IMG/VR virus record: IMGVR_UViG_3300032007_000018
Location: 136,445 to 200,444 of that record
Length of the DNA: 64,000 bases
From: a virus
Strand: one strand, 5' to 3'
Below the pieces are notes generated by a model, which saw only the letters and a list, made by a program, of their open reading frames with translations, was not told where the DNA came from and searched no databases. Positions 2,952-60,902 of the stretch are shown piece after piece. The translations under genes and the position numbers were made by a program. Positions within the stretch are counted from its first letter, which is position 1. The number at the start of each line of letters is the position of its first letter.

Positions 2952-3022
2952 CCATAAGAGAGATCTTTATAATTAGAGCGGAGAGGACGCTGAGATGCCC
3001 GCAAGAGTAAAGTCCTCATTAT

Positions 3023-3094
3023 GGCTCGTTAGCGTAGCGGTAGCGCAATCGGCTGTTAACCGATGGGTCGTAGGTTCGAATCCTACACGAGCCG
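3023..3094 (+). tRNA. tRNA-Asn (GTT)
   Basis: acceptor GGCTCGT/ACGAGCC, anticodon stem ATCGG/CCGAT loop cuGUUaa, CCA encoded. Confidence 0.7.
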
Positions 3095-3281
3095 CCAGAC
3101 CCGTGGATCCGAGGGTACAGTATCGGACAAAATACGCTGGCATATCGTAGAGAGTGCGCAATCTCAAATATGCATTGCCGTGTGATGAATTGACACGGGA
3201 TATAAAGATTGTCAATTCCAGGTCGCTTGAACCTGAAAGGCCCTGTCGGCGGTACGGGAGAAGAAAAGCATCCGCTTATAT

Positions 3282-3352
3282 AGGCGACTGGTGTAACGGT
3301 AGCATGCCGCTCTCCAAAAGCGTTGGTCAGGGTTCGAATCCTTGGTCGCCTG
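3282..3352 (+). tRNA. tRNA-Trp (CCA)
   Basis: acceptor AGGCGAC/GTCGCCT, loop cuCCAaa, T-arm GGTTCGAATCC. Confidence 0.55.
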
Positions 3353-3443
3353 CCATTTTTCCTTTACTCGTAGAGCAAAAGTCAGCTGTAACGAGTAGTC
3401 CTTATCAAAGCGACGCTTTTGAGCCAACTGCTGACTTATATAT

Positions 3444-3527
3444 GCGCGAGTGCTGGAATAGGTAGACAGTCAAGCTTGAGGTGCTTGTGTTCGTAAGAGC
3501 GTGCGGGTTCAAGTCCCGCCTTGCGCA
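3444..3527 (+). tRNA. tRNA-Leu (GAG), class II
   Basis: anticodon stem CAAGC/GCTTG loop uuGAGgu; long variable arm; CCA. Confidence 0.65.
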
Positions 3528-3534
3528 CCAATAT

Positions 3535-3606
3535 ACCTCGGTAGTTCAGCGGTAGAACGCCGGACTCATATTCCGTAAGTCGTTGGTTCAAATCCAACTC
3601 GAGGTA
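3535..3606 (+). tRNA. tRNA-Met (CAT)
   Basis: loop cuCAUau, D-stem GTTC/GAAC, T-arm GTTGG-TTCAAAT-CCAAC, CCA. Confidence 0.6.
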
Positions 3607-3767
3607 CCATTTTCTCTTTTCAAGCCACTTGATTGTGCGAATGACTGAACGCACGTAAAACCGGCGATGGGCAAGCCATAAGCGTATGCGATAAACCAAG
3701 AGGTCAACGCTATCGAACCGAATATACCGTGGTGTAAAAGACCAAAGGAGTAGTAGATAGCGTATAT

Positions 3768-3843
3768 GGGCAGGTAGCTCAGCTTTGGTAGTAGCACTTG
3801 GCTGAAGCCCAAGGTGTCGGGGGTTCAATTCCCTCCCTGCCCA
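3768..3843 (+). tRNA. tRNA-Phe (GAA)
   Basis: acceptor GGGCAGG/CCTGCCC, stem CTTGG/CCAAG, loop cuGAAgc. Confidence 0.7.
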
Positions 3844-3922
3844 CCACACGCCATATTGGTGGATAAAACAGAATCATTGCAACCGCGTTGGCGTTGTGTC
3901 CTCCGATATGGCGCCACCTTAT

Positions 3923-3994
3923 GGTGGAATTGGTGTAGTGGTAGCACGAAAGTTTGTGGCACTTTTAGTATCGGATCGTAACCGATATTCCACC
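3923..3994 (+). tRNA. tRNA-His (GTG) with genomically encoded G-1 opposite C73
   Basis: g|GTGGAAT acceptor, loop uuGUGgc, discriminator C, CCA. Confidence 0.65.
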
Positions 3995-4000
3995 CCATAT

Positions 4001-4077
4001 GCTGTAGTAGCTCAGTTGGTAGAGCGCCGCACTGATAATGCGGAGGTTTTTCGCAGGTTTGAACCCTGCCTGCAGCA
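4001..4077 (+). tRNA. tRNA-Ile (GAT)
   Basis: stem CCGCA/TGCGG loop cuGAUaa, D-arm GCTCAGTTGGTAGAGC. Confidence 0.65.
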
Positions 4078-4133
4078 CCAACAGTTTAGCCCCTAATTCG
4101 AGTCTTTCTGTCAAAAAGATGATGATTTTATAT

Positions 4134-4288
4134 CCCGTACTAGCTCAACCGGCCAGAGCATCCGACTTGCCGGTATAGTGTAACGGTAGCACGAAGGATG
4201 CCCCTCGTAATCTGGGGAGGAGTAAGTTCAATTCTTACTATCGGCGCCAATAATCGGAAGGTTCCTGGTTCAATCCCAGGGTGCGGGA
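4134..4288 (+). tRNA. split tRNA gene: 5' half (acceptor, D-arm, 5' anticodon stem) and 3' half (3' anticodon stem, variable loop, T-arm, acceptor, CCA) separated by an about 81-nt insert in the anticodon loop; the spliced loop would be cuUAUaa (Ile/AUA) if the insert is excised exactly
   Basis: CCCGTAC...GTGCGGG pair perfectly; TCCGA/TCGGA anticodon stem halves at 4161-65 and 4254-58; D-arm GCTC...GAGC; T-arm CCTGG-TTCAATC-CCAGG. Confidence 0.45.
4169..4246 (+). tRNA. tRNA-like element nested inside the anticodon loop of the 4134-4288 tRNA; its own anticodon region is 28 nt (CCCC/GGGG stem with 9-nt loop ucguaaucu)
   Basis: acceptor GCCGGTA/TATCGGC, D-loop GTGTAACGGTAGCAC, T-arm GTAAG-TTCAATT-CTTAC, discriminator G, CCA. 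Confidence 0.4.
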
Positions 4289-4322
4289 CCAGATAAAGAC
4301 ACACGCAGCAATCTTACTTAAA

Positions 4323-4393
4323 AAGTATATTAGTCTAATGGTTGGACGCAAATCTTGAAAATTTGAATAGTAGGTTCGATTCCTACATACGCT
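4323..4393 (+). tRNA. class-I (short variable arm) tRNA with anticodon UGA (Ser codon UCA); identity unclear
   Basis: anticodon stem CAAAT/ATTTG loop cuUGAaa; T-arm GTAGG-TTCGATT-CCTAC; acceptor has one A-C mismatch and a U3-G70 pair. Confidence 0.4.
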
Positions 4394-4409
4394 TTTGAGG
4401 TGTCTTGCT

Positions 4410-4592
4410 ATGAAAATCTTAAAAATCGGAAAAAGATATGAGTGGCCGGTAACAATTCCATTTGACGGAAGAAAGAAAAGCGGTTTGTTTACTGGTAAGT
4501 ATAAAGAGAATGGCAATGCAATTCTTATAACCAAGGACGGTCAAAGATGGAGCGTTCCTCCTGAGAATTGTTACTTGGTTAAAAAGAAGTAA
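4410..4592 (+). CDS. hypothetical small protein (60 aa)
   Basis: ATG after GAGGTG; ends TAA. Confidence 0.4.
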   Translation: MKILKIGKRYEWPVTIPFDGRKKSGLFTGKYKENGNAILITKDGQRWSVPPENCYLVKKK

Positions 4593-4593
4593 T

Positions 4594-4648
4594 TTGACAT
4601 TTATAAAAAAATTTTATATAATATATATAGAAAATAAAGATAAGGAGA
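4594..4648 (+). promoter_or_regulatory. promoter repeat copy (TTGACA -35, 17 nt, TATAAT, AAGGAG)
   Basis: consensus-spaced -35/-10 and SD. Confidence 0.6.
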
Positions 4649-4652
4649 AACA

Positions 4653-4826
4653 ATGGAAGATTGTAAATACAAAAAGCTTTTCCCGCTTACCAACAAAATA
4701 CATTGTTTTTCCTACTGCAAATCCAAAAGAAAAGATGGATTACACTGGGCTCATTATCCCTATTGCGAGGATAATGCGTGTCCTTTGAAACATCCTGAGC
4801 TTCTGGAGGGTGCAGAACTTCAGTAA
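4653..4826 (+). CDS. hypothetical Cys-rich small protein (57 aa)
   Basis: ATG 6 nt after AAGGAG; C-x-x-C pairs; ends TAA. Confidence 0.4.
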   Translation: MEDCKYKKLFPLTNKIHCFSYCKSKRKDGLHWAHYPYCEDNACPLKHPELLEGAELQ

Positions 4827-4829
4827 TAT

Positions 4830-4903
4830 GCGCGCTTAGCTCAGCTGGTTAGAGCACCACGTTTACACCGTGGGGGTCGGGGGTCCGAATCCCTCAGTGC
4901 GCA
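4830..4903 (+). tRNA. tRNA-Val (TAC)
   Basis: stem CCACG/CGTGG loop uuUACac; acceptor GCGCGCT/AGTGCGC; CCA. Confidence 0.7.
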
Positions 4904-4909
4904 CCATCA

Positions 4910-5335
4910 GTAATAGCTTAAAATTAGACCCTTAAGAGCGACCCGTGCGCAGGGGAAATGGTGAGAGAGAGGTTCACCTTACTGAGCCAGGCCAAGTATG
5001 CTACTGCTGAAAAATCGCGAGTAAGGCTTCGGGGATGCTTGGTGGTCGAGCCCCAGAAAAAAGACCACCCCAGGCGAGTGAGAGGATAACCGGTGCATAA
5101 CGGAAAAAGCCCCTAACATAAGCTCACTCAGTAAGAATAAGTATTTTGAGACGCATACAGCAATCATTATCAAGTCACTTGAAAATGATTTTTAGGGTAA
5201 AATATTGGTTCTACCGATGTGGTGTGGAAATCCACACTACCCCACCCGAAGTCCTTTGGTTGTGGACAGCTTCTGCTTCGGTTAGGTTTGATTAAAGCAT
5301 AGTCCTCTGTGTCTCGGAGCATTTAAGAGAGGTAC
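4910..5335 (+). ncRNA. candidate structured non-coding RNA (ORF-free, GC-richer, many local helices)
   Basis: no ORF over 65 aa; begins with ACAGCAAUC motif at 5158; multiple GGUUC/GAACC-type hairpins. Confidence 0.25.
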
Positions 5336-5336
5336 A

Positions 5337-5807
5337 ATGTTAAAAATATACACAAGCTATTTTTATCAAGTTCGATTTATGAAACCCCATATGGTGCCTC
5401 TTTCTACTGCGTGCTTTGACCCTCGCTGGTTTCATCAGAATAAAGGGCAAGATTTTGTTTGGAAAGATAAAAATGGTGTGTATAATGGTTTGCGCGCGCC
5501 GGTGTTTGCGCCCGGTCCTCTCTGTGAGAATCTATGTCGCGGGCCAGAAACCTGCGTAACGCGAGATCCGCAAACTTGTCTTTTTCTAAATACCTATCGG
5601 TATCAACTTGACCAACTTGATTTCAATGATGTAGTTGCTCGCTGTGAGCGTTTGGGCAAATATGTTCAATCATTAGAGCACTTCGCCGAAGAACCTGTGA
5701 TAATGCTCCTTGTTCACGAGGCGCCTCAGAATCCCTGCTCCGAGCGTCGTGTCATCCAGGAATGGTTCGCCGCAAACGGAAAGGAAGTAGTAGAATGGCA
5801 GAAATAA
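5337..5807 (+). CDS. hypothetical protein
   Basis: 156-aa ORF; start could be internal (ATG 5386). Confidence 0.4.
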   Translation: MLKIYTSYFYQVRFMKPHMVPLSTACFDPRWFHQNKGQDFVWKDKNGVYNGLRAPVFAPGPLCENLCRGPETCVTRDPQTCLFLNTYRYQLDQLDFNDVVARCERLGKYVQSLEHFAEEPVIMLLVHEAPQNPCSERRVIQEWFAANGKEVVEWQK

Positions 5808-6034
5808 CTTTACATTATACTCCAGAGGAATTGAAAGTTCTTTTAGATGCTTTGAATCACGGATGTGTTGCTCTTGGGAAAGTATATGCCGGCGCACGTC
5901 TTGGATGTGAAATTCCTGCCGAATTTGAGGCTAAATTTAAATCAATGACTTTTGAGGAAATTAACGAATATACGCGCTTTCGATTTAATAGTTTGCGTGA
6001 GTTGTATGAGTATCTTTTAACCTTTGAAGAATAA
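5795..6034 (+). CDS. hypothetical protein
   Basis: ATG after GGAAGGAAG; ends TAA. Confidence 0.45.
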   Translation: MAEITLHYTPEELKVLLDALNHGCVALGKVYAGARLGCEIPAEFEAKFKSMTFEEINEYTRFRFNSLRELYEYLLTFEE

Positions 6035-6937: not shown

Positions 6938-7039
6938 ACAAAAGAACTTCCCATTGATTTTTTAAAAAAAATAATATATAATATATATGTAAGATAAAGA
7001 AAGGGAAAAAACCAAGATAGAAAATTGGACTTGGCAATA

Positions 7040-8260
7040 AGACCATCACCCAAGTAAAATCTTACATTGAACATCAGATGTGAAACTCGCCGTCCTTAGA
7101 CAAGACGTAAAATCCCTATGACTCACACGGAGCCTGTCCGCGAGTACTGAAGGGCTCTTGATGTTCAATATCGGCGGTAAAGCAGACAAATTGGAGCCAA
7201 TCGAATGCCGCCACTCCTTATACAATATCGCTCCCCATTAATATATAACTGCGCGGGGGACTTGGACAGCCGTAAAGGAAATCCTGAGTAGTTTCGTATG
7301 GCACAACGAAAGGGTTGGTATCGACAGATGACGCGCAAAGAGGTTAGGAGTTGCAAACGCTTCCCTCTATAATCTAAAGCGTATAGTTTATGGGGGATGG
7401 GACTGCATAGAGTGGTCATCTGTCTTGCACACAGAAAATCAGACGGGGGCGGTACCCGTATCCTCCACCAGCCGGTTCGTTTAGTGCGTTTCCTTACCGT
7501 TAAGAAGTGAAAGCTGAAGGCGATCTCCACGGAGGCGCACCGTGCTCGCCAAAAACGACGTCGTGTTTACTGCGGAAATGCGGGTTCGAGCCCCGTCCGC
7601 GCTCGTCCAGGAAGTGGGCGCGGTAGTTTCAATGGGTAAAACGCCCAGTAAATGAGTCCCGCACAGCTTACAGCCTCCACGTGGCGCGGGATGGGTAATG
7701 CTAATTGTAAGTGATTATTTCAACTCCGGCGTATAAAGGCGCCTGTCCTAGTAGCAGGTCTCACCGGCGGCAGTTCGTTTTGAAGTCATTCCTGTCGTTA
7801 TGAAGCGGTGGCCACCGTGAGGATATGATGGAGGGTTCCGGTCTCGAGAAAAGCTCGACCAACAGAGAGTATGTAATGTGCCGGTCATTACAGAACCTTC
7901 ATTTCGCACCCGTCTATGAAGTAAAACAAAGAGATTATAACGGGGTATGATGGATAATGTGCTTGGTCAATTACCTGCCCAATGTACCAGTCCATTGAAT
8001 GATGAATGAGGTGCGATTCCTCTGCACCATACAAGATGCTGTGCGGAATAGCGGTAAGGAAAACCGTTCTTGTATGGGTAAGGCGCCCTAGTGGGCGGGA
8101 TCTAAGGGCACACGTAGAGTTCCACGACAGTCGAACATCTCTTCCTTGGCGGGTTTGCGGTCAGCCCATAAAACCGCTCCGTATATGGCTCCGAGGGAAA
8201 ACGGGTTGATCCGCCAGCCTGTCTTGGATACTTACAAGGTATGTCTTTGGAAAAGGGATT
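7040..8260 (+). ncRNA. candidate large structured ncRNA (about 1.2 kb, ORF-poor, GC-rich relative to genome), GOLLD/ROOL-like by context or an intron remnant
   Basis: only short spurious ORFs; follows promoter repeat at 6954; lies inside the tRNA region; many GC-rich helices. Confidence 0.3.
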
Positions 8261-8267
8261 GGTGAAA

Positions 8268-8406
8268 AATGGAATTAAATCCTTCTCAAATAGGACAAGT
8301 AACAGAACTCAAATGCCAAACTTGGTTGATAGAGCATGGCTGGAATGTTCTTTTACCAGTTGGAAACTCTCAATATGCTGACGTAGCCCAATTGGCAGGA
8401 GGCACA
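8268..8406 (+). pseudogene. 5' remnant of a small nuclease gene (paralogue of 10660-11064) truncated where a tRNA gene begins
   Basis: MELNPSQIGQVTELKCQTWLIEHGWNVLLPVGNSQYAD resembles the N-terminus of ORF 10660-11064 and runs straight into the tRNA at 8377. Confidence 0.3.
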
Positions 8407-8451
8407 TGACTTAGGATCATGACAGTAAGAGTTCGAGTCTCTTCGTCAGTA
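8377..8451 (+). tRNA. class-I (short variable arm) tRNA with anticodon UAG (Leu codon CUA), A73, CCA
   Basis: stem CATGA/TCATG loop cuUAGga; T-arm AAGAG-TTCGAGT-CTCTT. Confidence 0.45.
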
Positions 8452-51256: not shown

Positions 51257-52447
51257 ATGAGCGAACGTTCTTTGGCTCACGTAGAGCAAATTGTGGATAT
51301 TCAGCCCATCCCCGATGCAGATAAGATCGAGGTTGCCACTGTTCTCGGCTGGAGAGTTGTAATCGCTAAGGCTGATAATTTTCAGGTTGGCGATAAGGTC
51401 GTTTATATCGAGATCGATAGCAAAGTCCCTGAGCGTCCGGAGTTCGAGTTCCTCCGCGATCGCAAGTTCCGTGTTCGCACAATCAAGTTGCGCGGCCAGT
51501 ATTCTCAGGGATTGATCTTGCCTATCTCTATTCTCAAGAATAAGAACTACGAGATCGGTGAGGATGTAACCAAGGAACTCGGCATCACTTACTACGTCCA
51601 AGAGGATAATATTCGTAAGGCAAATAAGATTCCTGCGTCTGTAAAGTACCAGTCTATGGCTATGCGGCATAAGAATCTTTTCAAGCATCAGCCTTTCCGC
51701 TGGTTGATGAAGAGAAACTGGGGCCGTAAGATGCTATTTATCTTCTTCGGTAAGAAGAAGGATAAGCCGAAGGCGTTTCCTACCAAGTTCGCTTTCGTCC
51801 ATAAGACCGACGAAACTCGTATTGAGGCTCTACCTTGGCTGCTCGGTTATGATAAGCCGCTTATCGTAACTGAGAAACTCGATGGAACCAGTTCTACTTA
51901 TATTCTCGAGCGTACTAAGAGAAATAAGTATGAGTTCTGGGTCACTTCTCGTAATGTGCGGCAGTTGAAGGACGATCAAAACTGCTACCACGACTACAAT
52001 ATCTATTGGGCTATGGCTAAGAAGTATGATATAGAGAAGTATCTGCGCGAGTACCTTGAGGCTAACCTTGACCTCGAGTATGTCTGCCTACAGGGCGAGA
52101 GCGTTGGTAGCGTTCAGGGTAATCCTCTGAAACTCGCTGAGGACGATCTCTATATTTTCAACTTCATCGACTCCAAGCAGGGCCGTATCTCTTCTATCGT
52201 AGGCAAGGAGATTGTCGAGAAGTGGGGCATGAAGTGGGTTCCTATCCTTGACACCAACTTCATTATGCCAAAGGATATGGAGGAGTTCAAGGTTATGGCA
52301 ACTGCCAAGTCCGTAGTGAATCCTAAGGTTCTGCGTGAGGGTATTGTCCTGCGTGATCCTACCTGCGATTTGAGTTTCAAGAATGTCTCCAGAGAGTTCT
52401 TGATGAAGCATCAAGATGATCTTGTTGAGGAGGCTCAAAATGAGTAA
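51257..52447 (+). CDS. ATP-dependent RNA ligase with N-terminal OB/tRNA-binding-like domain (Rnl5/DraRnl-NgrRnl-like)
   Basis: motif I TEKLDGTSS (KxDG); N-terminus DIQPIPDADKIEVATV resembles the EMAP/Myf OB fold; 396 aa, TAG-free. Confidence 0.6.
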   Translation: MSERSLAHVEQIVDIQPIPDADKIEVATVLGWRVVIAKADNFQVGDKVVYIEIDSKVPERPEFEFLRDRKFRVRTIKLRGQYSQGLILPISILKNKNYEIGEDVTKELGITYYVQEDNIRKANKIPASVKYQSMAMRHKNLFKHQPFRWLMKRNWGRKMLFIFFGKKKDKPKAFPTKFAFVHKTDETRIEALPWLLGYDKPLIVTEKLDGTSSTYILERTKRNKYEFWVTSRNVRQLKDDQNCYHDYNIYWAMAKKYDIEKYLREYLEANLDLEYVCLQGESVGSVQGNPLKLAEDDLYIFNFIDSKQGRISSIVGKEIVEKWGMKWVPILDTNFIMPKDMEEFKVMATAKSVVNPKVLREGIVLRDPTCDLSFKNVSREFLMKHQDDLVEEAQNE

Positions 52448-52610
52448 AGAACTCTGTGTAAGAGCCAGCGTTATTCATAAAAGATACCGATGGTGGAAAT
52501 GCGGTAGAGTTATTTCATATAATCCAATCACAGGTACTGTAGTCGTACAGCAAGGTGCTGGTGCTTGGGCCGCACACGAAGATGAAGTGGAGGTTCAAGA
52601 TGACACCTGA
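52440..52610 (+). CDS. hypothetical small protein
   Basis: ATG overlapping ligase stop. Confidence 0.35.
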   Translation: MSKELCVRASVIHKRYRWWKCGRVISYNPITGTVVVQQGAGAWAAHEDEVEVQDDT

Positions 52611-52899
52611 ATATGTAACCAAAGACAGTATCTTTGATATTGTCTTTGGTGAGTTCTGCGCTTGCTCTGATGAAACTGAGCAGATATTGAATGACATTAT
52701 TGAGCAAGTAAAAGCATTGTCCGCCACGGATGTAGCGCCGATAATTCATGGTAAATGGCATGATGTCTATATGACAAGTCCAAGTTCTTTTGCAGCAACA
52801 TGCTCTATATGTGGTATATCAAATGATATTCCACATCCTATTAGCGCACATTATTGCCCTCATTGTGGAGCAAAGATGGATGGTGAATCTAATGTATAA
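52594..52899 (+). CDS. hypothetical protein with C-terminal zinc ribbon
   Basis: CSICG...CPHCG. Confidence 0.4.
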   Translation, partial: FKMTPEYVTKDSIFDIVFGEFCACSDETEQILNDIIEQVKALSATDVAPIIHGKWHDVYMTSPSSFAATCSICGISNDIPHPISAHYCPHCGAKMDGESNV

Positions 52900-53257
52900 T
52901 CCAGATACGCTTATAACCTCAAAAGAGGAGCAGTATGAAATTCCGCCTGCTCCTACCTTCAGAGAAGATCCGATGGACGCAATCTTTCGGATGTTCCAAG
53001 AGAATGGCACTGGAAATCCTCCATATATTCCAGTTGACCAGACCACGGTAGTTCGTCAACCTGAGCCGATAAAGCCAAAACTATGCCCATTTCGCAAGAA
53101 GACTGTCTTCTATCAGAATGATTATACTACTCGTATCGAAGGAGAAAAAGTTATGCTAAACCTTCCAAGAGCAGAGTGGATGGAGGAAGAATTTCTACCA
53201 TGCATTCGTGAAAAATGCGCGGTATGGAATGAAAAAGGGCAGGTATGTTGCTATTGA
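52893..53257 (+). CDS. hypothetical protein
   Basis: ATG overlapping upstream stop. Confidence 0.4.
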
Positions 53258-53570
53258 ATCTGTCATGGAGAATTAAATAAACAATATAAATAAAATTATA
53301 AGCCCTCTAGTTTCTAGAGGGCTTATTTGATTTTTATAAAAAATATGATACAATATATATAGAAAATGTGAAAGGAGCTTTGTAATGAATAAGTATTGTA
53401 CACAAATTGAAAGAGCATTGTGGTCTTATGAAAATTGCAAGCCCTATCACCCCTATTCCATTGAATGGATTTGCAATCGAATTAACTGGTGCTGGAAGTG
53501 GAAGAAAATTTCCCAAGAAGAAATGGAAAATTTCGCTGACAGAGCTATCAAAATTATGGAAGGAGAGTAA

Positions 53571-53772
53571 GATGAACGACAATACCGCTAAATGGGTTTG
53601 GGACCCAGATGGAATTGATTGGGGTATTGGAGCCTGGGTCTGTAATAGTTGTTGGTGTCCAAATCACAACCTTGATTCCTGCAAAAAGAATGAAAATCCA
53701 ATGCATTGGTCTGGCTCAAAATATTGCCCTAACTGCGGCCGCAAGATGTCGTATAATTATGGCAAAGTATGA
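53571..53772 (+). CDS. hypothetical zinc-ribbon protein
   Basis: CNSCWC...CPNCG. Confidence 0.4.
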
Positions 53773-53925
53773 AATTCACGGGTATATAAAACCTGCTCTT
53801 CAGATGCCGTGGATCCTTTTAGATCCGCCTCAAGGCTATGATACAGATGACTATCTACAAATTCAAGATTCCATGCGAAGGATAGGAATCAACTACTATA
53901 TTATTGAAGTAAGGAGGAATCCATT

Positions 53926-54708
53926 ATGGGTAGAACCTACGCCTGCGCCGACCTCCATGGACAATGGGGACTCTGGGAGCAAATCAAGCAGTATCTCCAA
54001 TCAGACGACAGACTCTACTTCCTCGGAGACGCAATTGACAGAGGACCCCATGGATACGAAATAATGAAAGAACTTCTGTCTGATAGCCGTGTTACTTATA
54101 TTAAGGGTAACCATGAACTCATGATGGAAGAAGCAATTCGCGAAATGAGCCATATCCAATACGATGATACTACCTATATGGGAGAAAAGTATCATCTATG
54201 GGCGTGGAACGGAGGCGCTCCTACTATCGCCGCTTGGGAAGAAGCCGGAGCGCACTATGATATAACGACTGTGCTTCATCAACTTTCAACTAAGGAAACA
54301 TATATTAACGCAGAAGGATATGAAGTCTGTCTATGCCATGCTGGATTTACTCCTGGTAATGAACCTTTTTGGACTTACGATATGGTATGGAATAGAGAAC
54401 ACCTGCTCCAAAAGATTCCTGACAAGTATAAGCACGGTAATTTTATCGTGGTTCACGGTCATACTCCTACCCCATATCTACTAATGGATATGGATCAGCG
54501 TAATCGTGAGCTGGTAGCTTTCTATGCCGACAAGTGTGAAACGCAAGCAATCCCGCAATATGATTACATAGAAAATAATGGCGCCGTCTTTTATGGAGAT
54601 GGAACGAAGATCGATATTGACTGTTGCTCTTTTGCGACTGGTCATACCGTTCTTCTTGACCTGGACTCCTGGCGGACAATCCCTTTTGACGCGGATATAG
54701 AAGAATAA
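53926..54708 (+). CDS. PPP-family Ser/Thr-phosphatase-like metallophosphoesterase
   Basis: CADLHG...GDAIDRG...GNHE. Confidence 0.6.
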   Translation: MGRTYACADLHGQWGLWEQIKQYLQSDDRLYFLGDAIDRGPHGYEIMKELLSDSRVTYIKGNHELMMEEAIREMSHIQYDDTTYMGEKYHLWAWNGGAPTIAAWEEAGAHYDITTVLHQLSTKETYINAEGYEVCLCHAGFTPGNEPFWTYDMVWNREHLLQKIPDKYKHGNFIVVHGHTPTPYLLMDMDQRNRELVAFYADKCETQAIPQYDYIENNGAVFYGDGTKIDIDCCSFATGHTVLLDLDSWRTIPFDADIEE

Positions 54709-54773
54709 TTTGATTTTTTTATAAAAATATATTATAATATATATAGAAAATAAAGAAAGGGGTTGTATCCGAA

Positions 54774-54998
54774 ATGAGTTCCTACGATTGGGAAGATGTG
54801 GGTGCCGTTATCGTCATCCTGCTAGTTGCACTGATACTCGCTCTGCTTGGGGCCTGGATTGGTGTCGCCTTGTGGGGTGCAATCATGGTTAAGGTCTTTG
54901 GTCTCCCCGCGCTGACTTTCTGGCAGTTTTACGGCCTCATGATTCTCCTTCATATTCTGCTCCCCGGTCGCGGAGTGCGGACGAAGAAGGAGGATTAA
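54774..54998 (+). CDS. small membrane protein (2 TM)
   Basis: hydrophobic 74-aa ORF after promoter repeat. Confidence 0.45.
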   Translation: MSSYDWEDVGAVIVILLVALILALLGAWIGVALWGAIMVKVFGLPALTFWQFYGLMILLHILLPGRGVRTKKED

Positions 54999-54999
54999 G

Positions 55000-55278
55000 A
55001 TGGCCAAGAGAACGAAATCTCCATCGTGTGAAGAACACAAATTTTACTGCCTTCTCTGCGGCCGTGAGGGTATTCCGCTCTTGCGGAAAACAGGCTTCCA
55101 GCACGGAGCATTACATCGTAAAAAGTTGTATTGCCCCTATTGTAAAGTGGAAGTAAATCATATTGAAATCAAAAACCGAGACGAAGAAGAACAATTCAAA
55201 GAAGATTTTCAGAATGGGGTGTATAAGGATGAAGCAGAAGAATCTCGTGCTTTTGTCGGGAATTCCAGGCGCGGGTAA
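55000..55278 (+). CDS. hypothetical zinc-finger protein
   Basis: CEEHKFYCLLCG...CPYC. Confidence 0.4.
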   Translation: MAKRTKSPSCEEHKFYCLLCGREGIPLLRKTGFQHGALHRKKLYCPYCKVEVNHIEIKNRDEEEQFKEDFQNGVYKDEAEESRAFVGNSRRG

Positions 55279-55732
55279 GTCTTACTGGGTGAAGAATCAC
55301 CTGCGCGAAGGCGATTCCTACGTTTCCCGCGACGAGGTACGATTCTCCATTATCGGCGATGATGAAGAGTACTTCTCCCACGAAACCGAAGTCTTTGACA
55401 AGTTCGTGGCAAAAATTGAAGATGAACTCAACGCCGGTAAGCGTGTCTTCGCTGATGCAACCCACATCAACCATGCCTCTCGCCGCAAGTTGCTTGAGCG
55501 CATCCACGATAAGGACAACATCGACATTGATGTTTATGTGTTTAAGACTTCTCTTGGTACTTGTCTTGAACGCAATGCACAGCGTGAGGGGCGTGCGCGT
55601 GTTCCCGAGTCTGCTATCTACCGCATGAGCGAGCAACTCACCGACCCTGCGCACGAGCCTTATAAGTACCGAGAAATCAAGTATATCTTTGAAGATGGAA
55701 AGGAGATATCCGTATGGCAGCCACATGGGTAA
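55229..55732 (+). CDS. P-loop kinase of the polynucleotide 5'-kinase family (AAA_33-like)
   Basis: LLSGIPGAGKS Walker A about 10 aa from the proposed start; DATH (Walker B-like). Confidence 0.55.
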   Translation: MKQKNLVLLSGIPGAGKSYWVKNHLREGDSYVSRDEVRFSIIGDDEEYFSHETEVFDKFVAKIEDELNAGKRVFADATHINHASRRKLLERIHDKDNIDIDVYVFKTSLGTCLERNAQREGRARVPESAIYRMSEQLTDPAHEPYKYREIKYIFEDGKEISVWQPHG

Positions 55733-56295
55733 CAAGCGATTGGCACTTCGGCCATGATCGCGAGTTCATCTGGAAAGCCCGCGGTTTCAGCTCTGTTGAC
55801 GCCATGAATGATAAGATTATCAAGGCGCATAACTTTGTTGTCGATCCCGACGATGATGTGTATGTCCTCGGTGACCTTATCCTGGGCGATTCCGCTAAGG
55901 GTCTTGAGTGCTTGAGAGCGCTCAATGGTAAACTGCACATTGTTCGTGGTAACCACGATACCGACAGCCGATGGGCCGCATATGCGACTTTGCCGAATGT
56001 CGTAGAGCAAAACAACGTCATTCTGCTCAAGTTCAGAAAGCACAACTTCTATATGAGCCATTATCCCACGCTGACTGGCAATCTGGAGAAGGAAAGTCTG
56101 AAACAGATGACTCTCAACCTGTTCGGCCATACTCACCAGAAGAGCAACTTCTATATGGATATGCCATATCTTTATCACGTTGGTGTAGATTCGCATGACT
56201 GTTTTCCCGTGAAGCTGGAGAATATCATTGGCGAAATGTATGCCAAGGTGGACGAATGTAAGGAGTTCCTCGATGAATCGAGCGAAGAAGAGTAG
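55714..56295 (+). CDS. metallophosphoesterase (lambda-phosphatase / Pnkp-phosphatase-like)
   Basis: DWHFGHD...GDLILGD...GNHD...GHTH. Confidence 0.6.
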   Translation: MAATWVTSDWHFGHDREFIWKARGFSSVDAMNDKIIKAHNFVVDPDDDVYVLGDLILGDSAKGLECLRALNGKLHIVRGNHDTDSRWAAYATLPNVVEQNNVILLKFRKHNFYMSHYPTLTGNLEKESLKQMTLNLFGHTHQKSNFYMDMPYLYHVGVDSHDCFPVKLENIIGEMYAKVDECKEFLDESSEEE

Positions 56296-56598: not shown

Positions 56599-58062
56599 AT
56601 GTTAAGTGCTATTTTGCCGTACCTTCCGTTCATTCTGATTGCCATTGTGGTAATCGCCGTTCTCTGTAGTGGTTATGTTAAGGCTCCGCCTGATATGGCC
56701 TACATCATTTCCGGTCTCCATAAAAAGCCAAGAATTTTGATTGGTAAGGCCGGCATTAAAGTACCTTTCTTCGAGCGAATTGATAAGCTCTCTCTTGGCG
56801 CAATTCAGATTGATGTTAAGACTGGTTCCGCCGTTCCTACCGCAGAGTATATCAACGTGAGAGTTGACTCCACAGTCTCCGTGCGCGTGGGCCGTACCGA
56901 TGAAATGATTGCGCTGGCTGCACAGAACTTCCTCAATGTGGGACGAGATGAAATTGCGCGAAAGATTAACGACCTCCTGGAAGGTAATATCCGTGAAATC
57001 GTCGGCCAGATGAAGCTGACCGAAATGATTGGCGACCGCAAGAGTTTCTCTGAAAAGGTGCAGGAGAACGCTGTTCCCGACCTTGCCAGATATGGTCTTG
57101 AACTGATTACCTTCAACGTGCAGAACTTCGTTGATGACAACGATGTTATCACCAACCTGGGTATTGACAACGTGGCGCAGATTTCCAAGAACGCTGCCAT
57201 CGCCCGTTCCAATGCGGAGCGTGAGGTTGAGGTCGCCAAGGCCGAGAACGCAAAGCAGGCAAATGACGCTAAAGTCAAGGCTGCTGAGGAAATCGCCAAG
57301 AGAAACAACGACCTCGCCATTCGCCAGGCTGAACTCCAGAAGGCTGCGGATACCGAGAAGGCTCGTGCTGAAGCGGCCAAGAGCATTGAGGCCGAGAATC
57401 AGCGTAAGCTGAAGGACGTTGCCGAGACCGAGGCCAACATCGCCAAGGCTGCCAAGGAAGCTGAACTGCGCCAGAAGGAAGTTGAGCTGAAAGAGTATGA
57501 GCTGACTGCGCTCGTGCGCAAGCAGGCTGATGCTGACAAGTACGCTCAGGAGAAGGCCGCTGAAGCGAAGATGATTCAACAGCAGAGAGAGGCTGAAGCT
57601 CGCGCTTACGAGCAGGTGAAGAAGTCTGAGGCTGCGAAGCGTGCGACCGAGCTTGAAGCGGAAGCACGTAAGTTGCAGGCAGATGCTGATAAGTATGCGG
57701 CGATGGCTGAGGCGGAAGCTATTCGCGCGAAGGGCGAAGCCGAAGCTGAAGCAATTCGTATGAAGGGTGAAGCTGAAGCTATCGGTATTGAAAAGAAGGC
57801 CGAAGCTCAGAAGAAGATGTCTGATGCATCTGTGATTGAAATGGTAATGAATGCATTGCCAAAAATTGCAGAAAATGTTGCGGCTCCTCTTGCAAATGTA
57901 GATAAAATCACAATGTATGGAGAGGGCGGTTCTACTAAACTTGTTGGCGATATTATTACCAACACGAGCCAGATTTTTGAAGGAGTTAAAGAATCTACTG
58001 GATTAGATTTGAATACTCTTCTTGCTGGATATCTTGGTGGCAAAGCCGTAGATAAAACTTAA
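56599..58062 (+). CDS. flotillin-like SPFH/band-7 protein with EA-rich coiled coil
   Basis: N-terminal TM; SPFH core; long AEAKAEAEA-rich region. Confidence 0.6.
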   Translation: MLSAILPYLPFILIAIVVIAVLCSGYVKAPPDMAYIISGLHKKPRILIGKAGIKVPFFERIDKLSLGAIQIDVKTGSAVPTAEYINVRVDSTVSVRVGRTDEMIALAAQNFLNVGRDEIARKINDLLEGNIREIVGQMKLTEMIGDRKSFSEKVQENAVPDLARYGLELITFNVQNFVDDNDVITNLGIDNVAQISKNAAIARSNAEREVEVAKAENAKQANDAKVKAAEEIAKRNNDLAIRQAELQKAADTEKARAEAAKSIEAENQRKLKDVAETEANIAKAAKEAELRQKEVELKEYELTALVRKQADADKYAQEKAAEAKMIQQQREAEARAYEQVKKSEAAKRATELEAEARKLQADADKYAAMAEAEAIRAKGEAEAEAIRMKGEAEAIGIEKKAEAQKKMSDASVIEMVMNALPKIAENVAAPLANVDKITMYGEGGSTKLVGDIITNTSQIFEGVKESTGLDLNTLLAGYLGGKAVDKT

Positions 58063-59649: not shown

Positions 59650-60902
59650 ATGATGATGACTAAGATTTATGATACTAGCAGTTTATTATTAGTTGGCGAC
59701 AATCTATTCGAAAATGATGTAAATGTTGTAATTACATCGATTACTCTTAAAGAGTTAGAACGAATTAAAACTTCTGCGAATAAAGATGCCAATATTAAGT
59801 ATGCGGCTCGTCAGTTGCTTCACTTACTGGACGAAAATCCCGACGCTTATGAGTGTTATATATATCGTCCACAAATGAATCAATGGCTGGAGAAGTATGA
59901 TTTAGAAATAAACGATGATGCTAAAATCTTAGCCGCAGCTTATGACTATGCTAATACACATCAAGGTGAAAATTCAATCTTTTATACGAATGATTTAGCT
60001 TTAAAAAAGATTGCTAAAATCTTCTTTGGTTATCAAGTTGATAGTGTGAAGACAGAAACTGATGACTATGTTGGATATAAAGAGCTATATCTTGATGAAA
60101 ATGAAATGGCATACTTCTATTCCAATCCACAAGACTATGGTGGAGAATTAAATATTAACGAATATGTTAATATATATGATAAAAAATCCAGAGAAAGAGT
60201 TGATACTCTACTTTGGACTGGCGAAGTATTTCGTCAGCTAAAATATAAAAGTTTTATCTCTAAACAATTAGGAGAAGTAAAGCCATACAAAGGCGATATT
60301 TACCAGGCTATGGTTGCGGATAGTCTTATGAATAATAAGATTACGATGATTAAAGGACCTGCGGGCGCAGGTAAATCGCATCTTGCAATCGGGTATTTAT
60401 TCTCTCTATTGGATAGAGGAAAAATTGATAAAATTATAGTATTTTGTAATACTGTCGCAACTAAAAACGCTGCTAAACTGGGATTTTATCCTGGCTCAAG
60501 AGACGAAAAACTTATGGATTCACAAATTGGAAACTTTTTAGCAAGTAAACTCGGCGGAAAACTTGCCGTTGAGTAGTTGATTGATAGTGAAAAACTGCTT
60601 TTACTTCCAATGAGTGATGTTAGAGGCTATGATACTTCTGGAATGAATGCTGGTATTTATATTACAGAAGCGCAAAATCTCGACGTTGAATTGTTAAAAC
60701 TCGCTCTGCAAAGAGTTGGTGAAGATTCAATTATCATCCTTGATGGTGATACCAAGAGCCAAGTTGACCTAGTTGACTATGAGGGCTTTAATAATGGTAT
60801 GCGTCGAGCCTCTTAGGTATTTAGAGGTAATGATATATATGGCGAGGTTGAACTTAAAACAATTCACAGAAGTAAAATTGCAGAAATAGCGAATAAAATG
60901 TA
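59650..60902 (+). CDS. PIN-domain plus PhoH-like ATPase (PhoH2), 2 in-frame TAG
   Basis: N-terminal PIN (DTSSLL...TNDLALK), Walker A GPAGAGKS; ORF 60577-60816 is the same frame across a TAG. Confidence 0.55.

Follow-up and report, generated by a model that had tools for sequence, protein, structure and literature searches.

The 64,000-nucleotide (nt) window analysed here (positions 136,445 to 200,444 of IMG/VR virus record IMGVR_UViG_3300032007_000018, a phage contig of about 200 kb; G+C over the window about 39%) contains a tRNA gene that is broken in its anticodon loop by a second, tRNA-shaped element of 81 nt. On the evidence of orthology and pairing, the outer gene is a tRNA-Ile(UAU) interrupted exactly between U34 and A35. 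The overall explanation that we propose is that the insert is a ribozyme-free mobile intron, excised by RNase P and a 3' cut, whose flanking halves would then be ligated; we judge the chances of this to be evenly balanced. The two exons, identified from the sequence, from orthology to intact tRNA-Ile(TAT) genes in the relatives L056, L058 and L160, from covariation and from an ARAGORN search of the joined sequence, are laid out as follows (coordinates are those of the window).

4134–4168, plus strand: 5' exon of tRNA-Ile(UAU), nt 1–34, with acceptor (4134–4140), D arm (4143–4159), anticodon stem (4161–4165) and loop bases C32, U33 and U34 (4166–4168).
4250–4291, plus strand: 3' exon of tRNA-Ile(UAU), nt 35–76, with A35, U36, A37 and A38 (4250–4253), anticodon stem (4254–4258), variable loop (4259–4263), T arm (4264–4280), acceptor (4281–4287), A73 (4288) and CCA (4289–4291).

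The 5' half reads CCCGTAC TA GCTC AACCGGCCA GAGC A TCCGA CTT and the 3' half reads ATAA TCGGA AGGTT CCTGG TTCAATC CCAGG GTGCGGG A CCA. Together they make a cloverleaf in which 21 of 21 stem pairs are formed, one of them G.U. Joined in silico, the halves are called by ARAGORN as a tRNA-Ile(tat) of 77 nt with the loop CUUAUAA, and the joined versions from L003, L012, L035 and L037 receive the same call. With standard settings ARAGORN misses the outer gene and reports instead a spurious hybrid tRNA-Leu(caa) at 4202–4291; with introns allowed it recovers 4134–4291 and an 81-nt intron, in the wrong register. The gene belongs to a dense, same-strand tRNA array that runs from about 2.7 to 22 kb and holds 33 ARAGORN genes, two of them CTA suppressors. 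In the open reading frames (ORFs) of the window, AUA makes up 10.5 of every 1000 codons.

Relatives were found through homologues of the neighbouring 156-residue protein (5337–5807), of which there are hundreds in metagenomes, at least some from rumen studies, and through one pattern scan of metagenome contigs for the core of the insert. Several relatives carry the outer gene intact, directly after tRNA-Ile(GAT): L056 (2878–2954), L058 (2968–3043) and L160 (3046–3121; also L161). The intact genes have the loop CTTATAA, and the anticodon arm and variable loop of L056 (TCCGA CTTATAA TCGGA AGGTT) are identical to the joined halves of the window. Since these syntenic orthologues carry CTTATAA, only one register is allowed, with junctions at T4168|G4169 and A4249|A4250, between U34 and A35. 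The first-pass annotation of this stretch had described a tRNA within a tRNA and had suggested that exact excision of the inner unit would leave a UAU anticodon, with UGU or AAU in neighbouring registers; the nested anatomy and the UAU reading agree with the pairing of the halves, the Rfam match of the insert described below and the intact orthologues, and orthology excludes the two other registers. In an alignment of joined exons from seven interrupted and three intact alleles, 99.5% of cells pair (100% in the seven interrupted alleles). Both sides have changed in 15 of the 21 pairs, none of 500 shuffles is as good, and slid controls reach 25–42% pairing. Minimum-free-energy folding gives z scores of −0.8 for the full 159 nt and −0.4 for the inner 81 nt, a stability no better than that of shuffles; as folding energy is neutral on both folds, the case rests on the comparative data, and the folds on covariation.

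The insert was delimited from its match to the Rfam tRNA family, from a covariance model (R1) built on 11 copies of the element, and from pairing and covariation. Its central domain was delimited from the alignment and a table of 14 sequence contexts.

4169–4249, plus strand: tRNA-shaped intron, 81 nt, with acceptor (4169–4175/4239–4245), D arm (4178–4192), T arm (4222–4238), discriminator G4246 and CCA (4247–4249).
4196–4221 (within 4193–4221), plus strand: invariant central domain GGATGCCCCTCGTAATCTGGGGAGGA, 26 nt, in place of a normal anticodon arm.

The insert scores 41.3 bits against RF00005 (gathering score 29), with model positions 1–71 matching 4169–4246, from G4169 to G4246. The alignment skips the anticodon arm, where the insert has 24 nt and 17 are expected. 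A canonical arm with a stem of 5 base pairs (bp) and a 7-nt loop is lacking; the region has seven extra purine-rich bases followed by a 4-bp CCCC/GGGG stem with a 9-nt loop. All 20 modelled pairs are formed in every copy of the element, and seven of these have changed on both sides (three in the acceptor, four in the T stem), and covariation supports the acceptor, D and T arms of the insert. A base in the D loop and one in the T loop change together (G and T in nested copies, A and G in free-standing copies), which suggests a real L-shaped fold. Model R1 gives all 14 copies 100–109 bits and ordinary tRNAs at most 42.5 bits; its best match among the ordinary tRNAs is the tRNA-Thr(TGT) of the window at 13871, whose acceptor is similar, and the element probably derives from a tRNA-Thr.

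The central domain, GGATGCCCCTCGTAATCTGGGGAGGA at its core, is unchanged across the 14 copies, and the aberrant anticodon region spans 33 nt. This invariance is partly imposed by the search pattern; the 4 + 4 bases that the pattern left free were always CCCC and GGGG. The inner 9-nt anticodon loop noted in the first-pass annotation corresponds to one possible fold, in which CCCC/GGGG (4201–4204/4214–4217) closes the loop UCGUAAUCU (4205–4213), which holds CUCGUAA, of Thr(CGU) type; because the whole region is invariant, the fold draws no support from covariation and the loop stands as one possibility. As no canonical 5-7-5 arm can be drawn, we term the element tRNA-like, and not a demonstrated decoding tRNA. 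Three further ideas about the insert were rejected. A 7-nt mini-intron within it yields a canonical 5-7-5 arm around CUCGUAA in no register. Pairing of the outer CATCC (4159–4163) with the inner GGATG (4196–4200) is perfect in the window and lost in L003 and L029, and is put down to chance. An internal guide, in which the invariant domain or the T stem would pair with the exon ends, amounts to a 4-nt AAGU match that is absent in L029.

The element was found in 14 distinct sequence contexts. Comparison with related genomes finds the arrangement of the window repeated, with halves that are not unrelated sequences, in nine distinct interrupted tRNA-Ile(UAU) alleles (window, L054, L037, L003, L041, L158, L012 and L035, with L164 and L165 identical to L012 in exons and intron). 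In L029 it is a tRNA-Lys(UUU) that the element splits at 34|35; the joined gene, with loop CUUUUAA, is called tRNA-Lys(ttt). Free-standing copies lie between ordinary tRNAs in L007, L039 and L033; in L033, 6 nt separate the copy from the 3' exon of an upstream tRNA-Ile(UAU) that is interrupted by an ORF. By these comparisons, the element is a conserved RNA family that occurs both nested and free-standing. Beyond these relatives, blastn against GenBank phages gave generic tRNA matches for 3000–6000 and none for 4134–4292. An exact 18-mer junction scan of IMG/VR returned two loci (L001 and L002) that are chance matches without tRNAs, and a D-arm pattern scan of IMG/VR returned ordinary tRNAs, a few tRNA-like 5' ends of other RNAs and no new copy. 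The core 20-mer had no match in 185,579 bacterial and archaeal genomes, and there is thus no sign of a cellular or prophage copy. Directly after its free-standing copy, L039 has a further tRNA-like gene (3288–3408; GGGGCTT...AAGCCCC) with an insert in the anticodon region. The extent of that insert is uncertain (23 nt as an intron by ARAGORN, about 50 nt by eye), as is its register, and it holds the GACAC...ACAGCAAT motif that elsewhere precedes a tRNA of variable anticodon.

The history of the element differs from that of the genes that carry it. Between L003 and L035 the exons differ by 40% and the introns by 5%; between L012 and L035 the exons differ by 6% and the introns by 13%; and in L158 exons of the L003 type flank an intron with a 5' part of the window type. 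This discordance indicates that the element moves between alleles. With the same site used throughout and empty sites in relatives, the features expected of a mobile intron are present, and by these comparisons the element is horizontally mobile. It has neither an endonuclease gene within its 81 nt nor a target-site duplication. The related tRNA arrays often hold GIY-YIG and PDDEXK_5 endonuclease genes. In L059 and L060 the same slot holds another intron, located at 36|37 and consisting almost entirely of a PDDEXK_5 endonuclease ORF; their exons equal those of the window save for the D loop and are identical to those of L054. In L163 (about 2505–2584) the tRNA-Ile(UAU) has no intron and has an extra TT exactly at 34|35 (CTT TT ATAA), giving a 9-nt loop. 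The same gene has a C.A mismatch in the T stem and is the sole allele of this tRNA-Ile(UAU) to combine the two defects. The extra TT may be a scar, left either by an intron that was lost imprecisely or by an endonuclease cut and its repair. We read L163 as a probable decaying empty site, which would favour the explanation proposed here.

Several observations bear on whether the outer tRNA is still used. The nine interrupted Ile alleles fall into three exon families up to 40% apart and have no stem mismatch and no indel; in the interrupted Lys allele of L029, the T stem contains a single T.T mismatch. Compensatory changes are seen when interrupted alleles alone are compared: L037 has TTCGA/TCGAA as its anticodon stem and the window TCCGA/TCGGA (U-A for C-G), and the acceptor has A1-U72 and C3-G70 in L012 where L035 has G1.U72 and U3-A70. 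In all 10 distinct nested copies, 3 nt lie between the inner discriminator and the 3' junction. The sequence of this tail is CCA in six, CTA in three and CAA in one, so that its middle base drifts; a length kept while the bases drift makes sense only if the exons are rejoined precisely. Taking these patterns together, we think it rather likely that the outer tRNA is functional.

We suggest the following route. The array transcript would fold into two nested cloverleaves, and RNase P would cut at the intron's own position +1 (U4168|G4169), leaving a 3'-OH on U34. An endonuclease, for which an RNase Z/BN-type enzyme that cuts after CCA is the candidate, would cut at A4249|A4250, four bases past the acceptor helix of the intron, leaving a 5'-phosphate on A35. 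The tRNA-like RNA would be released as a separate product. The outer halves would be kept in register by their acceptor and anticodon stems (12 bp), with a U34-OH/pA35 nick in the anticodon loop, and an ATP-dependent RNA ligase, possibly the Rnl5-type enzyme of the phage, would seal it. Both junctions fall exactly at the tRNA ends of the insert (model position 1, and 71 plus 3) in each of the 10 distinct nested copies, where N(−1) is U and N(+1) is G. This U(−1)/G(+1) step is the context that bacterial RNase P prefers, and its cut gives the upstream fragment a 3'-OH. Some RNase Z/BN enzymes (that of Thermotoga maritima and E. coli RNase BN) place their cut behind a gene-encoded CCA, so that the downstream fragment starts with a 5'-phosphate, and a nick of the U34-OH/pA35 type belongs to the substrate class of ATP-dependent RNA ligases. 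An Rfam scan of 4090–4330 gave no match to a ribozyme family, Intron_gpI included, at E up to 10, and 81 nt mostly taken up by a tRNA fold are too short for a group I intron or ribozyme core. The lack of a ribozyme, with ends placed exactly at tRNA ends, points to a route through RNase P, a 3' endonuclease and an RNA-repair ligase. A corollary on origin is that a mature tRNA-like RNA may once have been ligated into a nuclease-cut anticodon loop and then copied back to DNA, because the boundaries are those of a mature tRNA with CCA, the very ends that an RNA ligase would join.

The ligase, kinase and phosphatase genes to which the first-pass annotation had drawn attention are all present in the window, within a cluster of RNA-repair genes that extends from 47115 to 56295.

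51257–52447, plus strand: ATP-dependent RNA ligase of Rnl5 type, with an N-terminal OB fold and a nucleotidyltransferase domain; candidate sealing enzyme, with a putative link to this tRNA.
55163–55732, plus strand: P-loop polynucleotide-kinase-like protein (Pfam AAA_33, 8e-19); candidate end-healing enzyme, its link likewise putative.
48902–49774, plus strand: metallophosphoesterase (Pfam).
53926–54708 and 55714–56295: further metallophosphoesterases (Pfam).
47115–47966: RlaP-type nucleotidyltransferase (Pfam).
49761–50240: NADAR protein (Pfam).
50407–51240: RNase_T-type exonuclease (Pfam).

By its domains (Pfam PHA02142 OB, 5e-29; RNA_ligase, 9e-14) and its homology to the Naegleria gruberi RNA ligase NgrRnl (5cot, E = 6e-27), the ligase is a predicted member of the Rnl5 family (DraRnl/NgrRnl). 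Its match to TIGR02306 (RNA_lig_DRB0094, 1e-33) is under the curated equivalog cut-off and supports assignment at family level only. The kinase resembles the kinase domain of bacterial Pnkp (TIGR04075, 8e-14, far under the cut-off). A PIN-PhoH protein is encoded nearby (59650–60576).

A number of points weigh against the proposed route. Splicing of the outer tRNA is something we infer from the DNA, and intact exons could reflect recent insertion by a mobile intron rather than selection afterwards. Invasion without rescue does occur in this genome, as seen from the tRNA-Asp of the window (8187–8223), which was invaded by a PDDEXK_5 ORF and has decayed. The weakest link of the mechanism is the 3' enzyme. 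Ordinary RNase Z cuts after the discriminator, and such a cut would result in a 10-nt loop; in addition, three of the 10 distinct copies (four by the tally given above) have CTA or CAA in place of CCA, so that a CCA-specific cut is not general. The ligase family is widespread in related phages and common in rumen phages regardless of the state of the tRNA. It occurs on the contig shared by L109 and L058, beside an uninterrupted tRNA-Ile, and is therefore not dedicated to this intron, and the L003 contigs are absent among the 80 ligase matches listed. Rnl5 ligases have been characterised on nicks in duplex RNA, and not on anticodon-loop nicks as T4 Rnl1 has. The same phage family has ORF introns at 36|37 without any tRNA-like part, and the tRNA-like introns of Lak megaphages have an extra 5' hairpin (PMC6784885), so that RNase P alone cannot define their 5' splice site.

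In an alternative reading the insertion has killed the host gene: the tRNA-like element would be the sole functional product, released by RNase P and 3' processing like any tRNA of the array, and the halves would never be rejoined, their intact look being due to recent and recurrent insertion. Discordant divergence of intron and exons shows the mobility that this requires, tRNA genes here are invaded by ribozyme-free PDDEXK_5 ORFs, of which the truncated tRNA-Asp is a case, and the free-standing copies give the element an existence of its own. We nevertheless consider a dead host gene unlikely, since the nine interrupted Ile alleles have kept their stems free of mismatch and indel (the Lys allele of L029 has its one T.T), compensatory changes have arisen between alleles all of which are interrupted, the 3-nt tail has kept its length in the 10 distinct nested copies, and the uninterrupted allele with a damaged loop, L163, is the one that also has a T-stem mismatch. 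If the gene is alive, its halves could instead be joined by a pathway common to the ribozyme-free introns of these phages, in which a dedicated endonuclease of phage or host leaves 2',3'-cyclic phosphate and 5'-OH ends; a Pnkp-like kinase and phosphoesterases would heal these for sealing by Rnl5, or host RtcB would join them directly, and the tRNA shape of the intron would serve a function of its own and not the choice of splice sites. Such a pathway would account for the presence of a full heal-and-seal set (kinase, three metallophosphoesterases, RlaP nucleotidyltransferase and exonuclease) and not a ligase alone, for the ORF introns at 36|37 of tRNA-Ser(GCU), tRNA-Ile(UAU) and tRNA-Asn(GUU), which with about 12–30 non-coding nt per side cannot use RNase P in the same way, and for the Lak introns with a 5' hairpin before their tRNA-like part. 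It leaves unexplained that both junctions fall at tRNA ends in 10 distinct copies. By manual inspection, neither junction has a bulge-helix-bulge (where the outer anticodon stem meets the inner acceptor stem, CUU, 3 nt of the 5' strand, stands opposite GCCA AUAA, 8 nt of the 3' strand, and the intervening 4-bp helix is lacking), and no homologue of a splicing endonuclease was identified in the window; we think this pathway quite unlikely.

If the invariant central domain cleaved or spliced the insert out unaided, this would give a reason for a 26-nt centre that is invariant in 14 copies while the surrounding stems covary. Ribozyme families give no match to the short region even at E up to 10, the tRNA fold takes up most of the 81 nt and leaves little space for a catalytic core, and the domain is equally present in free-standing copies, which have nothing to splice; we therefore regard self-removal as very improbable. 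Returning to excision by RNase P and a 3' cut, the wider claim that follows from it, namely that phages have a protein-only form of tRNA splicing, with neither ribozyme nor bulge-helix-bulge, in which an intron that mimics a tRNA is cut by the enzymes of tRNA end maturation and the loop is resealed by a phage ligase, is one that we put forward tentatively and would ourselves treat as somewhat doubtful.

The closest described case is that of the Lak megaphages, whose tRNA introns were reported as conserved, "enigmatic" and such that they "may encode a tRNA" (Devoto 2019, PMC6784885, Fig. 4 and Table S6). These are highly conserved between genomes and absent from some variants, and their splicing mechanism is unexplained (PMC6784885). 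A literature search for a described mechanism found only this description and no later paper that gives one. Both the Lak introns and the intron of the window are ribozyme-free inserts in the anticodon loop of phage tRNA genes that hold a tRNA-like acceptor/T-arm unit. In the Lak introns a hairpin of 20–30 nt and a spacer precede the tRNA-like part, whereas the intron of the window is the tRNA-like unit alone, starting at +1. By our reading of Table S6 the Lak introns lie at 36|37 or 37|38 and end 1–2 nt past the acceptor helix; that of the window lies at 34|35, with its ends at +1 and N73 + 3. The Lak introns are AT-rich and no resemblance to the present element was seen, and the present element differs further in having two target tRNAs and free-standing copies, in the evidence for mobility and in its phage lineage. 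We therefore suggest that it is a different sequence family and a cleaner case of a rare, unexplained kind.

Comparison with better-understood systems is also instructive. To our knowledge, among the tRNA introns of bacteria and their viruses a splicing mechanism is known for self-splicing group I introns alone. Those of bacterial and phage tRNAs (cyanobacterial tRNA-Leu(UAA) and tRNA-fMet) are likewise mobile elements inserted into the anticodon loop; the site of the tRNA-Leu(UAA) intron is also U34|A35, and the cyanobacterial tRNA-fMet intron carries the PD-(D/E)XK homing endonuclease I-Ssp6803I, of the same family (Pfam PDDEXK_5) as the ORF introns of this phage family. Group I introns have a conserved core of roughly 200 nt or more, whereas the insert has 81 nt and no Intron_gpI match. 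The proposed last step has the same chemistry as tRNA repair in T4, where a PrrC cut is healed by Pnkp and sealed by Rnl1, and the phage has kinase, phosphoesterase and ligase genes. T4, however, uses Rnl1 on a break made at 33|34 of tRNA-Lys by a host nuclease, and here the ligase is of Rnl5 type (NgrRnl/DraRnl-like) and the break would be programmed by the structure of the gene. Protein-spliced introns and split or permuted tRNA genes of archaea and eukaryotes likewise need proteins to cut and rejoin near the anticodon loop; in contrast to them, the gene described here has no bulge-helix-bulge, is not interrupted at 37|38, encodes its CCA (bacterial type) and has its halves contiguous and in order.

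If the outer tRNA is used, it would have to be repaired by protein enzymes in a manner undescribed for bacteria or their viruses. One gene would give two RNAs, and a further mechanistic class of tRNA intron would be added. The ligase and Pnkp modules of phages would gain a constructive role beyond countering anticodon nucleases, the "enigmatic" Lak introns would be explained, at least partly, and it would be seen how a non-coding mobile element can enter tRNA genes and leave them alive. With 159 nt and one ligase, the system is small. Because standard tRNA finders miss such genes, the tRNA repertoires of phages and estimates of their codon coverage are incomplete.

Other tRNA genes of the array are interrupted or altered in other ways. 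A class II tRNA-Ser(GCU) at 10595–11129, orthologous to an intact gene in L003 (11390–11484), is interrupted at 36|37 by a 445-nt insert that is nearly all a PDDEXK_5 ORF of the I-Ssp6803I family (10660–11064; Pfam 2.8e-25); the 12–30 or so non-coding nt on each side leave no room for a group I ribozyme. Similar ORF introns occur in the tRNA-Ile(UAU) of L059, L060 and L033 and in the tRNA-Asn(GUU) of L058, and by these matches, tRNA introns without a ribozyme come in a second class in this phage family, one that carries a PDDEXK_5 ORF. The tRNA-Asp at 8187–8223 consists of the first 37 nt, through the anticodon GTC, 100% identical to the intact genes of L054 and L056, followed by unrelated sequence and a 46-residue N-terminal remnant of PDDEXK_5 (8269–8409) that runs into tRNA-Leu(TAG). 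It looks like an invaded gene that later lost its 3' half. No tRNA-Ala and no complete tRNA-Asp were found in the window.

Directly downstream of the interrupted gene, the tRNA at 4324–4394 belongs to one homologous scaffold whose anticodon is TGA in the window and GCA, TTT, GTA or TTG in relatives; equivalents occur in L003, L054, L035 and L163. It is enclosed by the helix AAGACAC/GTGTCTT (4296–4302/4400–4406), with compensatory change in L163 (AAGGCAC/GTGCCTT), and the match of 4310–4406 to Vault RNA is insignificant (Rfam, 12 bits, E = 4). The window also encodes a set of proteins that is unusual for a phage, namely a major-vault-protein-like protein (MVP shoulder 1e-20, vault repeat 2e-9), a DUF2828/DUF7788/vWA protein and a Band7/flotillin protein (loci listed for the set: 41212–43626, 24075–25619 and 56599–58062), in a genome that has tRNA-like and Y-RNA-like RNAs. 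The Y-RNA-like matches, to YrlA, are sub-threshold (14802–14914, 36 bits; 7579–7642, 25 bits). The former lies just upstream of tRNA-Pro and the latter within a G+C-rich stretch of 1.2 kb (about 7000–8190) without a long ORF, which probably encodes structured RNA. Weak, sub-threshold matches to HDV-like ribozymes of the F. prausnitzii type are found at 9795–9848 (24 bits) and 7656–7712 (31 bits), the first of which begins right at the 3' end of tRNA-Met (9723–9795), which is how theta ribozymes, which act in the 3'-end processing of phage tRNAs, have been described to lie (PMC10879173). The two amber-suppressor (CTA) tRNAs lie at 19380–19455 and 19664–19738, and the PDDEXK_5 ORF of L033 has an in-frame TAG (about 232–240); this suggests that some or all of the phage group reads TAG as a sense codon.

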